A stretch of DNA of 64,000 nt from Lytechinus pictus (taxonomy: Eukaryota), in NCBI RefSeq assembly GCF_037042905.1, contig NC_087251.1, forward strand, positions 35,652,001 through 35,716,000. Direction: 5' to 3'. Position 1 is the stretch's first letter. Each line of letters starts with the position of its first letter. The notes beneath the pieces are model-generated. The model saw only the letters and a program-made list of their open reading frames with translations, was not told where the DNA came from and did not search any database. Both the position numbers and the translations under genes were made by a program. Below are positions 1,735-55,039 of the stretch, piece after piece.

Positions 1735-2087
1735 GTAATTTTATGACCGAATGTATAATTTCTGCACGTTTCACATCATGTAAAAAGGCTAAATAATAAT
1801 TGAAAAAAAAATGTTTGCTCGCTTCGAATTTGAGCAATTATTATTATTATCATTATTATTATTATTATTAAAATATTATTATTATTATCATTATCATTAT
1901 TTATTACTATTTGACAGAATTTAAAACAAATCAATTTAACTCTTCAGTTCCAATGATAAAAATATTTGTTAAAGTAACAAAAAAATTAGACACTGGATGA
2001 CCAAATAATTAACCAAATAATTGTAAATCTCGGACCCGGTTTATACCAGTGAAATCTTTGATCTTCTTCATTTTTATTTTTTAACAG

Positions 2088-5000
2088 AATATTCTCCTGT
2101 CCCATTCAAAACCCTCCCAGAGATGAGCACAGACGAGGTCAAGAAATGGCTGATTGAGGAAGTGCGTATATCTATCAGCATAGCTGATAAATTAGCAGAA
2201 GCGTGTGTAGATGGGGAGCTTTTGCTACGATATGAAGATCAGCATTTACAAAAGGATTTCCAATTGCCTACTGGAGTAATGCGAAAGATAATGTATGCTA
2301 GAGATGATCATATGAAAAAGCGTGCTCATGCACAAGCACTTCTCGCACCTGCATCAGAATGTTCCGACAACTTAAACAAAGGCGCCGGATCGACGGGGAA
2401 TGTACATAGATCTCCCTCATCAGCTGGAACACAGGAAAGTGAAAGTAATGCGCAGATCACTGAACTTACAGCATCAGTGAAGAAGTTGAATGCGCAAGAT
2501 GGCGACCTGCTGGGTAAATCAGTGGCGGTAGAAATGTCTCAACCAGCACCACTTTCCAAAGAAGAAGAATCAGCCAGAGAAGCAACGCTGCGATATCTCC
2601 TGACAGGCGATGAGAATGGATCCTTAGACAGTTCTTTCCATCCCATTCTTGTGGTAAACAAAGAATCATGTGGTGGCAAATCAGAAAGTCTCGAGGATAG
2701 GCTTGGTTTTGTTTCTTTGGTTAACTGGAATGCAGTCTTTGACTGCAATTCAAACTCTATTCAGAATGGTGTCTGTTCAATGGTAGAAAGAAAACGGGAA
2801 ATAAAGCTTCTTCTACCAGAGACATTCAATAAAGAAACGTCACCCGAAGAAGTAGATTTCAACGATGTCCCTTCCTGGATATTTGCAAATGGACGAGATG
2901 ATCTTGAAGAATTACAAAGCCCGAGTCTTGCTTCGGATTGGAATGAAAAGTATGGCGCTGGAGTTGATCGTGCAATAGATTTTTTTGCCATGAATGCAAT
3001 TCCTAAGGAAAGAGCAGTCATTGTTTTTCTTCTTCTTTCGAGAGACAGCGTGCAGGTAATGAGTGATATCTTCAAGAAATTACAGTCATCTTTGCAAGGT
3101 CATGGGACATTCACATTCATTGCAGAAAGTCGGAAGCTTTTCGAAGTTTGGGCAGATGAGGTCAAGAAGTGGTTACCACGAGATCAACTAGAGAAGAGAA
3201 GCTTCATTGGTACTTCATGGAAACGTGTCAATTGTTTCTTCCAGAAGCAGTTTGGAAAATTTGCAATTTTTCCAGCAGAATTGCCATTGTCAGATGGTAA
3301 GACATGCATTCTACCTGACAAGAAACGTTCTCAATGGCTCAACATAGATGTTCTTCCGTCAAATGAGTGTGAAAACACAGCCTTGGAGGAAGAGGGTCCA
3401 GAATTTCAAAAATTTGTTTCTGAGCAAGAGTTGGCTTTTTACCAAGGAAACCCAGTTTCTTGGTGGAACTTTCACCTAACCGAAGGTAGAGGAAAGAGAC
3501 AACAATTCAACCAAGTTTTACGACGTAAAGTCAGTAAATCATTGAATACCTTAGTGAAGTCAAAGTTGGTCCCTCCAAATCCCAATGATGGGTCGGGTTC
3601 TATCGTTACAATAACTATCTTTCATGAACCAGGGTCGGGGGCGAGCACTGCTGCAAAACAAGTCCTATGGGATTTCCATCGACAGTTCCGATGCATTATT
3701 GTTCAACGAGCAGTATTACCAACGGTTGACGAAATACTTCAAGTATGCCATTATGGGTACGAAAGTTTGGGAAAGGCTCCTCCAGTCCTTGTCTTGTTTG
3801 ATGATGCAGACGATGCAGAGGTTATCGACTTAATTGCACAACTTGAAGTAGCAACTAACAACAGAGACTCTTTGTCGATAATAATGCTTCACTGCAAAAG
3901 AACACCTGATCCTGAGCTTGAAGCAAAGGACAATGGTATGAATTCTGTTGTCATAGAGCACAAGCTTGATGACCGAGAACGAAAGTGGTTCGATGACAAA
4001 TTCAAGGAATACGATGAAGAATATAGTTTGAGCCCAGAGAAGTTGATTGGATTCATGGTAATGAAAGAAGAGTGCAACCCAGATTACATTCGAAGAATTG
4101 TATCAAACATCTTACCTGAGGTTGAAGGGAATGAAACTCGGCTGCTAAAGTACATGGCAGTTATCAACATGTTCATGGGAGATTTTGGAATGCCCGTCTC
4201 CTGCTGTGATGAATTCATGAACGTTGGAAGGAAAGTAGAAATATCTCGGGGAAGATACAAACTACAATATGTTCCATGGGAGAATCTCCTTTCACATGCG
4301 ACTTGCCTTCTCCTCGTCCCAACAAGAGTGCATACAAGATCTGGTCCTACAAAAGCAATCAAGTTAGTTAACCCTGTCCTCGCAACAGAGGTTGTTAAGC
4401 AAATTGTAGAAGACAGTGGACAGTCAATCGGGGACATCGTCAGAGAGCTGATACATCATTCCCGAATCCTTGACTCAAGGGCTTACACAAAGATGTACCT
4501 CATTGACAAAATCCGGGGGTTACTAGTACGGCGGAGGAAGATTGCAAATGACTGGAGTGAACAAAGTCAATTCTCCCCTTTGATAGAGCATATTCTCACT
4601 GAAAACCCATCGTTGGCCTTCCAACTTCTAGAAGAAACTTCCGAGTTATTCAAGAATGGACATATCGCACAACAGCTGGCGCGCTTGTACAAATGGCATG
4701 GAGACCTTGTTGAAGCTGCACGATGTGCGAAGATGGCAACTGACTTTCAGAGTGACAATCCTTACTATTGGGATACACGAGGCAGGATTGCTATAGACGT
4801 TATGAAGAGCTATAAGAAGAAGTACAACGAAACGCCTCTTGATGAATCTGATGCCTTTCAATTGATGAATCTACTACATGAGGGAATGGATGTCTTCAAG
4901 AGGTGTCAAGATCTTCTAAGGGTGGAATATAATCAGTTTTCTACATATGCTGGTTACTCCGGTGAGCTCAAAGTTATATTCCAATTCCTTCATATAATGG

Positions 5001-6292
5001 AGGAACGCGTGGTACCATTTTGTCTTTCATCAAGACATTGTGTACAACAGCTGAAGGTATACTTCTTGACTGACGAAGAGCTTCAAGGACTCAGTGAGTT
5101 CTGGAAACAACACAGACATAATCTCAAGGAATTGCCAAAGAGAGCTGATCTCACGCTTCATAGCATTGAGGATCTCATGACATTCAGCAAAAGTATAACA
5201 AGGACCAAGCAAAATCCTGAAGACGAACTGCGCATGAGGAAAACTGAGAAGAACAAGTTCTATCTGGATATGCTTAGATACTTCACAGTAGACATAGAGC
5301 AGTCTCCACCCAAGTCTGTCCAGGTAAATCCTGTATCAATGAATGAATGGAGAAGAGCACAAGTGAGAACATTGAACGCCGATTCGTTCTTTTCAATATT
5401 CAAACTGGCACAGCATGGTCAGGTAGATCCTCTGAAGAAAGTTCAAGGTATTCTCAACGCAAATCATCCCAAAAATTCATTTGATCTAAAAATTTTGGTT
5501 TGTCTTTCGTTCGCCTTGTCCTCATTAGATCACGAAGAGGTTGACTACAATGGGATAATCAGACAAGTGCAGAATCTGAATGAAATCGACCATAGCTTGT
5601 ATGGTGCTTTCTTCGCTCTGATGTTAGCCTGGCCAAGAGATGACCCAAATGCCAGAAGTAGCGATGTTGGGATGACCACGCTGAAAGCGATTGTGATTCT
5701 AAGAGAGAAATGGGACAACTTGCTTAGAATGAATTCAGAGAAACAATCATCTCAGACGAGGTATGATAAATCACTTCCGCGTTCCAATATAATAGTGAGA
5801 AAACCGCTCACACAGTTTCTACTGGCTCAGGGAGAAGGTTTGCGGGCATTCGTTCACATCAACATGTTCAACGCAACACAGTCTACACTGGAAGGTGAAA
5901 AGCACAGATTCTGGTCAAGAGAAGAAGTGAAAGAGCGAATGTTGCGCTTAGAGGGGACCATTCAAGATAGAGAGAGGATCGTTTACATAACCCCAGCAAA
6001 AGAAATTATCTACATCAGGCTATCTGCGAGATGGCACTGTCAACCAAGTCAAGAGAAAGTCTCCTTTTACCTTGGCTTCAATTTCCTTGGACCGGTAGCA
6101 TACGATGTGTGCGAAAAGGATCGCAAGCCAGTCCCAATTCTTGTGAAAACTCACCATCAGACATATCCTGGATATCTTTTGGGCAGACTTAGCAACCTCG
6201 AAAGGAGAAAAGAGGGCATTCAAACTACATTGGATGAAATAGAGTACTTGTCCAAGAAACGAAGAAACAGGCAAAAACTCACAGTTGATGAT
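2088..6292 (+). CDS. SAMD9-like: SAMD9/SAMD9L-like STAND NTPase, main exon (SAM, SIR2-like, P-loop NTPase, TPR-like, OB fold)
   Basis: N-terminal SAM-type signature (DEVKKWL...VDGELLL...LPTGVMRKI). SAMD9 motifs LLTGDENGSLDSSFHPILVVNK and WNAVFD, FYQGNPVSWWNF, Walker A variant HEPGSGAST..QVLWDF (3623-), Walker B VLVLFDD (3785-), and C-terminal EKVSFYLGFNFLGPVAYDV. Polypyrimidine acceptor at 2087; donor GAT|GTAAGT at 6293. Confidence 0.93.
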
Positions 6293-6911
6293 GTAAGTTC
6301 AATTCTTCCATTAAAATTCTGCAAATTAATTCATCAGATACAAACCTCAACTTAAGTCCTTACCCTACTTCTTATACTTACCCAATACAATATCACAATA
6401 ACAATTATCCCTATGCATTCAGAAAAATAGAGGCAGGGTCAATTGCCACGGGAGCGAAGGTTAAAAAATGAAGTCTGCCTATATTTTCTTTGTGGGGGTA
6501 TTTCGTTTCAGGTAACGAGTATCTTTATACAGAACACAGAGAATTGATAAAATGAGAAAGCCAGGAATTTGAACAATTGCCGACCCGTAAATATCAGATC
6601 ACGATCTTATAATGATTTTTTTTTATTTAATAGTAAAGTATGTGATATGGTAGTGATAATGATAACAATGACAACAATGCCATTATTGATAATGATTTGA
6701 ATGACAGCAATGATAATAATAATAAAGGTATTGAAAATATTGATGAGTGGAGAGCTACGGACTTGCCTGTTTTGAAGAAAAAAGCTACCCATCGCTTTTC
6801 TTTTCTCGCTCTTCTATAATTCAGTGCTTTAACTCTCCTTTATGTCAATTTCGAAAACACTCCCTGTGAATCCTGATTTTTTTTCCATTTGTTTTGGGAT
6901 TTTATTTACAG

Positions 6912-7070
6912 CTGACATTAATTCGGACCAAACCTAAGCTGGATGCAGAACTCCTGGACATTGAGGCGCAGATTCAAGATGAGCTCGACAAAAACGACGA
7001 CGAAGACGAAACATTTACTCTCGTAACAAAGCGGAAGAGGGGATACAAGGTGATGAGTATTGAGTCATAA
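6912..7070 (+). CDS. SAMD9-like: SAMD9-like gene, terminal coding exon (LTLIRTKPKLDAELLDIEAQIQDELDKNDDEDETFTLVTKRKRGYKVMSIES*)
   Basis: Acceptor TTTATTTACAG at 6901-6911; phase 0 matches the donor at 6293; 52 codons then TAA at 7068-7070; coding-like composition inside AT-rich DNA. Confidence 0.75.
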   Translation: MTLIRTKPKLDAELLDIEAQIQDELDKNDDEDETFTLVTKRKRGYKVMSIES

Positions 7071-36402: not shown

Positions 36403-36524
36403 GTAAGGACTTTTCTTTCTTTGTTCATCCGTAGGACTTCAATTGCTTATTGTTCTTTTTCATATAGGTTTCAATATCCTATTTGTAATATGTTAAGCTC
36501 TCCTGAATATTTAATGACAATTGT

Positions 36525-37522
<998 letters not shown>

Positions 37523-52382: not shown

Positions 52383-53670
52383 ATTTTTTTTTTTTATAAA
52401 GCTTTTTTTTATTTCCCTCCGATAGGGCATATATTTGCATAAACATTTTAACAATGATATAAATGAAATAACATATCATACACACATAGCATAATTTTGT
52501 ACAAAGTATAGGCCTACAGGGCATTTCAAGCAAAAGGCAACCGATACTAGAGTGGCCATGTCCTACACCCATCCGTTCCGCCGCCGACACTTGCAGCAGC
52601 AAAGAACAAATGAGCACCGAACAAGGCCACTCCAACAATAATTGATCACCTCTCACCCGAAACACACTGCACATTCATCATGAAAATATGTTTACATTAA
52701 ACAGAAATACATATAAAGGTCCGGAAATCTTATTACAAAATGACAAGAATTCTTTCGAAATTTACCCATTTTTTATCAAATTTATGTGTTTTGTTTTCCA
52801 TAATACTGATTTGCCTCTCATTTTTGTAACATTTTCTTATATATTGTTTAATTTTCTCAAAATTAGGTATGGTTTTTTCCACACGAGCAGAGTATACTTG
52901 TTGTTTCGTCCAAATTATTAAACAATTTAAAGCATCGTTTCTTTTTTCTGTGAAACCAAACAAAACATGTACAGCAGAAAGATTTATTCTAAATCTTGTT
53001 AAACTGTATAACCAGTCTGTAAATCGTACCCAGATAAGATTTACCACATGACATTGATGAAAAAAATGTATAGCGTTTTCTTCTTCCCTTCCACAAAAAG
53101 AGCATTTTGCATCTGCAGTTATTTTCATCTTTACAAGATCCTTATTCAAATATACTATCTTATTTAGCAGTCGGTACTGAAAGTACCTCATTGTAGTATA
53201 AGTTGTACATCGAAACATCGTTTTAAAATAATTTTTCATATCTCTGGTGTCCATCGAAATGCCATTGACAAACCATCTATTACACAATTTAGTCAAGTTA
53301 TCATCATTTTCTTTTAACATGATATAATATACATGTCTACATCCTTTTTTGTCCTTCAGTAAATGAAAGATATAAGCAGGGCATAATGGTTCATTAGATT
53401 TCATATTACACGTATTCAACTGAGCTTTATACTTACATTTAATAATCTGACATAAGACATAATAATGAAGAAACTGAATTTTGATTGAAAATCTTTTTTC
53501 ACACTCATCTCTTTCCAGAAGTTTTCCATTCTCATCTAATAAATCGTTAATAAATCTAATGCCTTTGTCCCACCATTCCTTTAAGAATATACCTTTTCCA
53601 CCAATTTTTACATCAGAATTGTACCATAAAGGAATAGCCGGCCAAAAAAGAGAAGTACACTGAACATTTC
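52383..53670 (-). mobile_element. 5'-truncated L1/Tx1-type LINE (ORF2 C-terminus with zf-RVT; ORF 52733-53670 still open) nested in the foldback element
   Basis: PLWYNS.V...W..KGI..I.DL, FQYRLLNKIV, CSFCGREEENAIHFFHQC..V..IW; poly-T (poly-A tail) at 52383-52413. Confidence 0.88.
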
Positions 53671-55039
53671 GAATAAAGGAGGAAACTATAATAAAAAATT
53701 TCCTTCCAAACTTGGTTATTATTTGAAAAAAATAAAATAGTTTAAAAAATATTCTAAAACGAATACCCAATAATCTAATTACTGTGGAATAACATGAAGA
53801 TCGATTGTAGACTTTCCTCCAGACACAGTTATTTCAAGAATAAAAAGCAATAAATCCCAACCCCCAACAACGAATGTAAAAACCAACAATCCGCCAAATT
53901 AAGACCATGTAGAAAATCACATGTTTAGAGCGTTGTCTTACCTGACCCAGTCATTTAAAAAATAATCTAAACAATCTTAAAAACATAAGACTTTGTCATA
54001 TTCTTATTCCTGTGGAATAACACGAGTATTATGCTTATTATTTTGTCTATACCCGGTTATTTAAAAGATTTAAAAAAAAATCTTCATAATTATAAATATG
54101 AAGATTGGTCTTGGCTTAGATTTTTTTTCAATATTATTATAAACACAGTTAAAATGTTTGGGTTTATAGTGTTGTCTTTACCCCACACCCAGTTCTCTTA
54201 AAAATACAAATTAAGCGAAACATTAATTTTAAAACTTAGACCCCTGCATCTTCCAAACTATAAAAACCCTGTGATAACGCATACCACAAAAACGACAAGT
54301 TAATCATAGGCGTAAATATTCATATCTGAATGATACGCGCCTTTAAACCCAAAATAACAACAACGTTATTCTACATCAATGATATTGTGGGGTCTCTGTT
54401 AATATTGTTTGTTTGTTTTTATTGTTTCTTATAATTCCCTATTTTGAAATAACTGGAGCAAAGACTACACCATATTTCCATGCTATTCAATGTTGATAAC
54501 ATTACAGGGTCTTTGTTTTGTTGTTGTGTTTTTAATGATTTTTATAACTGGGTCTGGATGAAAGACTACGCTATATTTCCATGTTATTCAACATAAATAG
54601 GATCGTGGGTCTTTTTTGTTTTTAATTATTATTAATTTATTACTATTATTCATCATTTGTTATTTGAAAGATCTGGGTCTGGAGGGAAGACTACGCTATA
54701 TTTCCATGTTATTCAACATCAATAAGATTGTGGGGCCTTTGTTTTATTATTATTATATATCTTTTTTATGATTTGTTATTTAAAAATAACTGGGTCTCGA
54801 AGAAAGACTACGCTATATTTTCAAGTTATTCAACATCAATGAGATTGTAGGGTCTTTTTAAATATTGTTCTTTATGATTTGCTATTTTGAAATAACCGGG
54901 GTTGGAACAAAGACTACACCATATTTCGATGCTGATTCCCATATTTCGCTGATCCCTGTGTTTTCCATTAATTTTTCCCGTTTTTGCTCTTTGCTATTTT
55001 TCCAGGTTCTTTAAATTTGTGATTTATCAGGGAGGATTC

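Follow-up and report, generated by a model that had tools for sequence, protein, structure and literature searches.

A predicted five-exon SAMD9-like gene in Lytechinus pictus

We analysed a 64,000-nucleotide stretch of the genome of the sea urchin Lytechinus pictus (contig NC_087251.1, here called C7, positions 35,652,001 to 35,716,000, forward strand; hereafter the window, whose first letter is position 1), in the first kilobases of which lie the last two exons of a SAMD9-like gene. This gene encodes a SAMD9-family member that lacks the AlbA_2 tRNase, and one of its predicted exons upstream of the window encodes a domain of ~110 residues (the N-domain) that resembles the TRADD-N adaptor domain of the DEDD2 type. 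An earlier note on this DNA had placed an open reading frame (ORF) at 2123 on the forward strand and the motif LRYLLTGDENGSLDSSFHPILVVNK at nucleotide 2588, and we found both exactly as claimed (Table 1). Counted from its ATG, the large ORF (2123-6355, +) encodes 1410 amino acids, with the motif starting at residue 156, and its frame is open already from 2027, giving 1442 codons without a stop. The top database match to it is the L. pictus SAMD9-like gene, whose NCBI model P0002 (1539 amino acids) is 100% identical. Part of the large exon is also present in 14 runs from six studies, as contigs of unrecorded type.

The 11 codons 5' of the ATG at 2123 are conserved as a peptide, reading YSPVPIKTLQE in P0003, the NCBI model of a paralogue 145 kb downstream, and HSPVAIKTLQE in P0045, so translation does not start at this ATG. 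A polypyrimidine tract closed by an AG at 2087 immediately precedes the large exon, and an ATT/ATC-rich microsatellite (window 1830-1905) lies within the intron just 5' of it. P0002 carries 97 residues ahead of MSTDEV, and its residues 1-86 are encoded 3.6 kb ahead of the start of the window. The open frame of this first P0002 exon extends 5' of the NCBI start to an ATG directly behind an acceptor, and two further exons on the same strand were found upstream through homology to residues 3-49 and 48-100 of P0044, the protein that NCBI annotates from the upstream exons of the paralogue. Together these make three exons upstream of the window start, 3.6-5.5 kb away, which would add ~246 residues. 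When the five exons are joined, all four introns have GT..AG boundaries and a single 1688-codon frame contains the whole of P0002 from residue 150. At the other end of the gene, residues 1488-1539 of P0002 match the last exon at 100% identity by tblastn (coding 6912-7067, then the stop), and the acidic tail that it encodes is conserved in Strongylocentrotus and Diadema models. The same order of upstream exons is found at the paralogue 145 kb away, and the N-domain is joined to the SAM domain in models P0045 and Diadema P0008 as well. The predicted five-exon model of ~1688 amino acids is fuller than the NCBI model, which truncates the N-domain here, and both are longer than the 1470 residues that the earlier note had given for the protein. 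N-myristoylation of the MG start of the protein was considered and dropped, as the residue after the glycine is arginine, which the usual N-myristoylation consensus excludes.

Table 1. Features of the SAMD9-like gene within the window; residues are numbered from the ATG at 2123.
Feature	Position	Strand	Basis
Coding stretch ahead of the ATG (…YSPVPFKTLPE)	2088..2122	+	Conserved peptide; contiguous in P0002 with the exon upstream
Large exon, fourth of five, of the SAMD9-like gene	2088..6292	+	tblastn with P0002; acceptor ACAG before 2088, donor GTAA after 6292
SAM domain	2123..2341	+	Residues 1-73; five helices predicted by AlphaFold, and family profile
Ser/Ala/Glu-rich linker, predicted disordered	2342..2545	+	Residues 74-141; at the position of the vertebrate flexible linker and AlbA_2
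Predicted SIR2-like alpha/beta domain	2558..3472	+	Residues ~146-450; LRYLLTG…ILVVNK motif opens at 2588; Foldseek
Predicted STAND-type NTPase, TPR/helical region and C-terminal OB-like end (…VSFYLGFNFLGPVAYDV)	3473..6292	+	phmmer and BLASTP colinearity with SAMD9
Variant Walker A loop HEPGSGAST	3623..3649	+	Aligned with human SAMD9 chains
Last exon, acidic coiled-coil-like tail (LTLIRTKPKLDAELLD…MSIES) and stop codon	6912..7070	+	tblastn; acceptor ACAG

The SAMD9-type core and the SAM domain

A phmmer search against solved structures aligned residues 134-1329 (numbered as in Table 1) with residues 219-1431 of a human SAMD9 chain at an E value of 1.9e-74. BLASTP to a vertebrate SAMD9 protein (P0021) gave an E value of 2e-72 from P0021 residue 377 to its C-terminal end, and as Pfam puts the AlbA_2 domain of P0021 at 190-345, the similarity begins just past AlbA_2. 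We also built an AlphaFold model of residues 1-460 on a 17-row alignment, with a mean predicted local distance difference test (pLDDT) score of 72.7. In a Foldseek search the predicted SIR2-like part of this model matched human SAMD9 chains solved by cryo-electron microscopy (cryo-EM) at E 7e-18, with 27% identity over ~310 columns. The next matches of this part were FAM118B (E 9.6e-4), SIR2-HerA (3.4e-3), and ThsA and DSR2 (~2e-2). Further along, the Walker A loop HEPGSGAST, which has no lysine and an upstream histidine, aligns with the human HHPGCGGTT, and its P, G, G and T columns hardly vary across the 17 rows of the alignment. A lysine-less Walker A variant has been described for the SAMD9 family (Mekhedov 2017, PMC5445408). 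With the core, a variant SIR2-like fold and a lysine-less P-loop all present in alignments and predicted structure, the protein is a member of the SAMD9/SAMD9L family.

A SAM domain at the head of the ORF had been claimed, and there it stands: residues 1-73 are modelled as a five-helix bundle with block-mean pLDDT values of 79-95, although ~246 further residues precede it and it is not the N-terminus of the protein. Positions 3-74 of a family-alignment profile match solved SAM domains, among them SARM1 (E 2.7e-6), Polyhomeotic (E 7.8e-6) and L3MBTL3, with values ranging to E 1e-4; this profile includes vertebrate rows, which makes the comparison a family-level test. As a single sequence the domain is weak, the SARM1 SAM being reached at E 0.055 by phmmer against solved structures. 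Pfam SAM models gave no match at E<=1 on the large-ORF protein alone, for which Pfam returned only sub-threshold matches to TPR_19, nSTAND_NTPase5 and NKWYS.

Absence of the AlbA_2 nuclease

The protein is a SAMD9-family member without the AlbA_2 tRNase, as the earlier note had proposed. AlbA_2 was not found by Pfam in P0001, P0002, P0003, P0005, P0008 or P0010, and among 11 relatives Pfam recorded it in six of the eight non-echinoid proteins and in none of the three echinoid ones. Because Pfam misses two of the eight non-echinoid relatives, its silence is not decisive alone, and the decisive evidence is the spacing between domains. From the end of the SAM domain to the LLTG column of the alignment, this protein has 92 residues, the three relatives with a preserved SAM block (paralogue P0003 as well as P0006 and P0008 of Diadema) have 91-96 and the two paralogues on contig C4 have 155-222, compared with 313-367 in the five vertebrate rows, and so there is no room for AlbA_2 in the L. 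pictus protein. The SAM domain, the linker and the SIR2-like start all lie within one unbroken exon (2088-6292), as had been claimed together with a linker of ~90 residues.

The predicted structure of the linker points the same way. Residues 74-141 have pLDDT values below 50 and no secondary structure in the AlphaFold model, while the SAM domain and the SIR2-like part fold well, and the folded domain that the earlier note had named as counter-evidence to look for in the linker does not appear in the model. We found no AlbA_2 sequence or fold across all five exons by Pfam and AlphaFold. The additional upstream exons that had been imagined as a possible source of a nuclease do exist, but they encode a predicted adaptor and not a nuclease. 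To survey the genome, we scanned its 812 Mb in six frames with PF04326, which gave at least one match, on contig C1, and none close to any of the four SAMD9-like loci, which lie on C7 and C4; these genome profile scans score only the best candidates, and their counts are lower bounds. At all four loci a SAM domain, a low-complexity stretch and an LLxG motif lie within one open frame, and the survey of paralogues that the earlier note had called for thus ends with four loci that have no AlbA_2. Family membership stands without this domain, since Mekhedov 2017 (PMC5445408) reports the loss of AlbA_2 in some members.

The N-terminal TRADD-N-like domain

The likeness of the N-domain to TRADD-N comes from profile comparison. 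An alignment of the N-domain compared by hhalign with a single urchin DEDD gave E 7.9e-5 with a probability of 61%, and compared with a 20-row alignment of DEDD TRADD-like_N domains it gave E 1.3e-4, a probability of 54% and a score of 36.4 over 61 columns. This score was reached by none of 200 column-shuffled controls (mean 13, maximum 19.7), and the reversed control scored 17.3. The urchin DEDD reference is the animal's own TRADD-like_N exon, which scored 52 bits in the genome scan with PF20694. In a language-model look-alike search, the 15 matches of the best-scoring set were clusters partly carrying PF20694, which we treated as a lead only. At C8:31877476 (+) and 35279458 (-), 3.4 Mb from each other, are two TRADD-like_N exons of the DEDD type whose scores are identical, and the pair reflects either an inverted duplication or a duplicate in the assembly.

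The AlphaFold model of the N-domain has the order beta-alpha-beta-beta-alpha-beta, with extra helices in the alpha segments and a four-stranded sheet. A conserved peptide in the preceding exon, DGKTLIF…HVGDV, may form part of the same fold. The TRADD-N fold is described as an RRM-like alpha+beta sandwich of two layers, its sheet having four strands (Kaur 2021, PMC8195603). Foldseek of the model against the PDB gave no match at E<=0.001 and returned only generic ferredoxin-like and IS200-transposase folds, and single-sequence or profile searches of the N-domain against Pfam and the PDB gave nothing usable. With phmmer, six relatives of the N-domain were found among 1.84 billion representatives, and a word-indexed profile search found five, so that the family, as sampled by these searches, is small or too divergent for their reach. 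In one homologue, P0046, the N-domain is followed by a Death domain (Pfam E 0.013), and this Death part has matches at over 80 sites in the genome; a genome scan for a Death-domain match in or near the SAMD9-like gene found none. We regard the TRADD-N-like identity as moderately supported, in that the modelled fold is compatible with it and the profile evidence is moderate, with Pfam scores falling short of the threshold.

Paralogues and selection

Between the gene and its paralogue 145 kb downstream, which share 70% protein identity, the nonsynonymous (dN) and synonymous (dS) divergences are 0.187 and 0.657 over 1437 aligned codon columns, giving a ratio (omega) of 0.28. Omega lies at 0.23-0.28 in every folded region except the nearly identical SAM block, and the N-domain exon gives 0.50 at a dS of 0.17. 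Strongylocentrotus and Diadema both have relatives of 47-80% identity. The gene is intact, probably working and under purifying selection.

Several further observations concern the paralogues and more distant relatives. The dS between the two C7 paralogues climbs steadily from 5' to 3': the SAM domain has 0.03 and the linker 0.19, the SIR2-like part 0.45 and the NTPase 0.73, the TPR region 1.02 and the C-terminal end 1.22, a gradient that looks like gene conversion at the 5' end or a mosaic duplication history. The three upstream exons of the paralogue (C7:35784779-35786703) are annotated by NCBI as a separate "uncharacterized protein" of 268 amino acids (P0044) that reads through a donor, and the NCBI model P0003 of the paralogue starts within the intron-side open frame; P0044 and P0003 are probably one gene split in two. 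Two more SAMD9-like paralogues lie on C4 (27.59-27.64 Mb) in opposite orientation, ~35 kb apart, with 34-35% identity and the order SAM, a linker of 155-222 residues rich in Ser, Thr and Pro, then the core; a genome scan found no TRADD-N-like exon near them. The sole AlbA_2 match among the candidates scored in the genome (C1:8264471-8264608, 37.7 bits) falls in an open frame of 203 amino acids that ends …GSETRILEFKE…FLNSSGGALMFGVDDKG; this frame has no relation to the SAMD9-like loci and may represent a Schlafen-like gene. In the brittle star Amphiura filiformis, the SAMD9-like protein P0009 (2025 amino acids) has a weak ubiquitin-like match, a protein kinase (E 1.6e-48) and SAM_2 ahead of the core, and by its predicted domains it is an animal counterpart of kinase-headed bacterial members.

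Elsewhere in the window, a GTA trinucleotide array (36523-37450, ~312 copies, 87% matches) accounts for a spike in GC skew and for overlapping low-complexity ORFs on both strands. An open frame of 366 amino acids at 52733-53833 (-) matches zf-RVT at E 2.1e-9, which identifies it by its predicted product as a fragment of a reverse-transcriptase-bearing retroelement.

Comparison with published architectures and known systems

The architecture found here is already known and not novel, because it is listed for the Strongylocentrotus purpuratus counterpart in the supplements of two papers. In fig4-data1 of Kaur 2021 (eLife, PMC8195603) there are at least eight echinoderm "sterile alpha motif" rows, of which S. 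purpuratus supplies three and A. planci five; each of them contains TRADDN-DEDD2+SAM+STAND+wHTH, and most add tetratricopeptide repeats (TPRs). Additional file 1 of Mekhedov 2017 (PMC5445408) gives XP_003727489.1, by HHpred, a SAM domain at 139-200 and SIR2_2 at 348-483, with no AlbA_2 row, while hemichordate, oyster and brachiopod entries of the same table do carry AlbA_2. The main text of that paper limits SAM to vertebrates, which is contradicted by its own table and by the L. pictus gene. In the passages searched of Legrand 2025 (PMC12680541), echinoderms, urchins and invertebrates are not mentioned. Searching the literature for SAMD9 and TRADD-N jointly turned up TRADD-N only in a reference list, and a search for SAMD9 with echinoderms found Mekhedov 2017 alone to be relevant. 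To this we add the L. pictus member together with a more complete model of its gene. The S. purpuratus protein XP_003727489.1 has the same domain order and spacing as the L. pictus protein, and its name, length and layout suggest that it is an orthologue; a further two S. purpuratus entries differ in having two leading Death domains, and starfish entries have ubiquitin-like heads (Kaur 2021, PMC8195603).

Human SAMD9 and SAMD9L (PDB 9zjr, 37id and others) share with the urchin protein the order of SAM domain, flexible linker, SIR2-like domain, lysine-less P-loop nucleoside triphosphatase (NTPase), TPR/helical region and OB domain. Unlike them, the urchin protein is without the AlbA_2 tRNase and has ~246 extra N-terminal residues that include a TRADD-N-like domain, as well as an acidic C-terminal exon. 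For human SAMD9L, a preprint reports that the SAM domain, the linker and the AlbA part are disordered in cryo-EM maps, that the Sir2-like and OB domains form dimer contacts, and that a nucleoside triphosphate is bound and not hydrolysed; it calls AlbA the principal effector and the only known catalytic domain (bioRxiv 10.64898/2026.02.01.703102). TRADD and DEDD/DEDD2 (PF09034, PF20694) resemble the N-domain in the 61 columns of profile similarity and in the Death domain of homologue P0046, and may do so in the predicted four-stranded alpha+beta sandwich. They differ in that their Pfam models are not significant on the N-domain, and in that the domain here heads a STAND NTPase and not a small adaptor. 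Relatives that lack AlbA_2, namely bacterial Avs5, Avs6 and kinase-headed forms and the fish SAM+PYRIN+SIR2 forms, have the same SIR2-like/NTPase/TPR core with the head swapped or missing. Their heads are PNP in Avs6 (Legrand 2025, PMC12680541), a kinase in the bacterial forms of Mekhedov 2017 (PMC5445408) and PYRIN in the fish forms of its Additional file 1, whereas here they are TRADD-N-like and SAM.

Interpretation and alternatives

On balance, we believe that this gene is the L. pictus copy of an echinoderm SAMD9-like STAND subfamily, with five exons and ~1688 amino acids, which lacks the nuclease, is headed by an adaptor and would signal by induced proximity. The predicted order of the protein would be a polybasic start rich in Pro and Ser, a short conserved peptide, a TRADD-N-like (DEDD2-clade) alpha+beta domain of ~110 residues, the SAM domain, a disordered linker of ~70-90 residues, the SIR2-like domain, a P-loop STAND NTPase with the lysine-less Walker A, a TPR/helical region, an OB-like end and the acidic tail. 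By analogy with other STAND proteins, the C-terminal TPR/helical/OB part and the nucleotide-binding module would sense a trigger and drive oligomerisation. The output would not be intrinsic RNA cleavage. As AlbA_2 is gone and the sensing and assembly core is kept, the TRADD-N-like and SAM heads are the only candidate output parts, and once clustered they would recruit Death-fold or TRAF-type partners by induced proximity, much as in an apoptosome or inflammasome. Adaptor-type signalling was predicted for Death-fold-headed members of the SAMD9 family by Mekhedov 2017 (PMC5445408). Induced proximity of adaptor domains is, we infer by analogy, the most economical reading.

Several points weigh against the interpretation that we favour. 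The hhalign probability of 54-61% for the N-domain is moderate and not decisive. The Pfam models TRADD-like_N and TRADD_N fail on the domain (P0043 gives nothing at E<=1), and so they do on five of its six homologues, the best being P0048 with TRADD_N at E 0.11 over 25 residues. In the genome scan PF20694 matches at least three other places and not this exon. The model of the N-domain is mediocre (mean pLDDT 68), and the TRADD-N structure 1f2h aligns with it at Z 5.1 and a root-mean-square deviation of 4.4 over 101 residues, ranking 18th among ferredoxin-like folds. The exon joins are predicted from gene models, splice signals and conservation, and a separate short TRADD-N transcript is possible because NCBI separates P0044 from P0003. 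The signalling mechanism is one that we infer, and the partners named for it are hypothetical.

One alternative, close to the earlier note, has the protein begin at the SAM domain with no other head and act as a sensor-only helper, as a dominant-negative regulator or through SAM polymerisation alone. An ATG at 2123 does open a frame of 1410 amino acids and the NCBI paralogue model P0003 is without the N-domain, but the coding peptide ahead of the ATG is conserved, there is an acceptor at 2087, P0002, P0008 and P0045 all join the N-domain to SAM, and published S. purpuratus and A. planci models place TRADD-N before SAM (Kaur 2021, PMC8195603). With upstream exons that encode a TRADD-N-like domain, a protein starting at SAM is unlikely. 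It is also quite unlikely that these exons are a separate small gene, encoding a free-standing TRADD-N-like protein next to the SAMD9-like gene. NCBI annotates the paralogue in just this way (P0044, 268 amino acids), and stand-alone homologues of 121-193 amino acids are present in databases; the latter, however, come from contigs of 548-15114 bases and may be fragments. Phase-compatible canonical splice sites join the exons into one continuous 1688-codon frame, models from three echinoid genera and from starfish share the join, and the genome scan located the N-domain nowhere but upstream of the two SAMD9-like genes on C7. As for a decaying young pseudogene copy, which the earlier note had allowed for, we found no supporting point, and 1442 codons without a stop, an omega as low as 0.28 and the identically arranged relatives in Strongylocentrotus and Diadema make it extremely improbable.

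The head of bacterial Avs5 is an active SIR2 NADase, and the main rival to an adaptor-headed protein is one whose SIR2-like domain would itself be a catalytic output that consumes nicotinamide adenine dinucleotide (NAD), as in Avs5, ThsA, DSR2 and SIR2-HerA. Immune SIR2 proteins rank directly after human SAMD9 in the fold search, the N-G…D motif (N256, G257, D260) is invariant or nearly so in the 17 aligned members, and different heads serve those bacterial relatives that have no AlbA_2 (Legrand 2025, PMC12680541; Mekhedov 2017, PMC5445408). The SIR2-like domain of human SAMD9 is nevertheless by far the closest structure, Pfam SIR2 models give no match to the large-ORF protein, and for the Sir2-like domain of SAMD9L a preprint states that reports of classical sirtuin activity are lacking and gives it a role in scaffolding and dimerisation (bioRxiv 10.64898/2026.02.01.703102). 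We consider such a catalytic output improbable. A bolder and more doubtful proposal than the adaptor-headed member described above is that an echinoderm SAMD9-type sensor was rewired to TRADD-N-like and SAM heads and would assemble a Death-fold or TRAF-type "SAMD9-some" for cell death or inflammation, or else that its SIR2-like domain kept or regained an NAD-degrading output of the Avs5 type; we offer it tentatively.

For the family, an adaptor-headed member without a nuclease means that the sensor core of SAMD9 can function in the absence of the AlbA_2 tRNase, held to be the main human effector, so that the output module would be exchangeable, as in NLRs and bacterial Avs proteins. The echinoderm copies would pair this core with apoptosis-type adaptors, as Mekhedov 2017 (PMC5445408) predicted for the family. 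Sea urchins may thus be a tractable system in which to learn what the SIR2-like/NTPase/TPR/OB core senses and how its signals are passed on.

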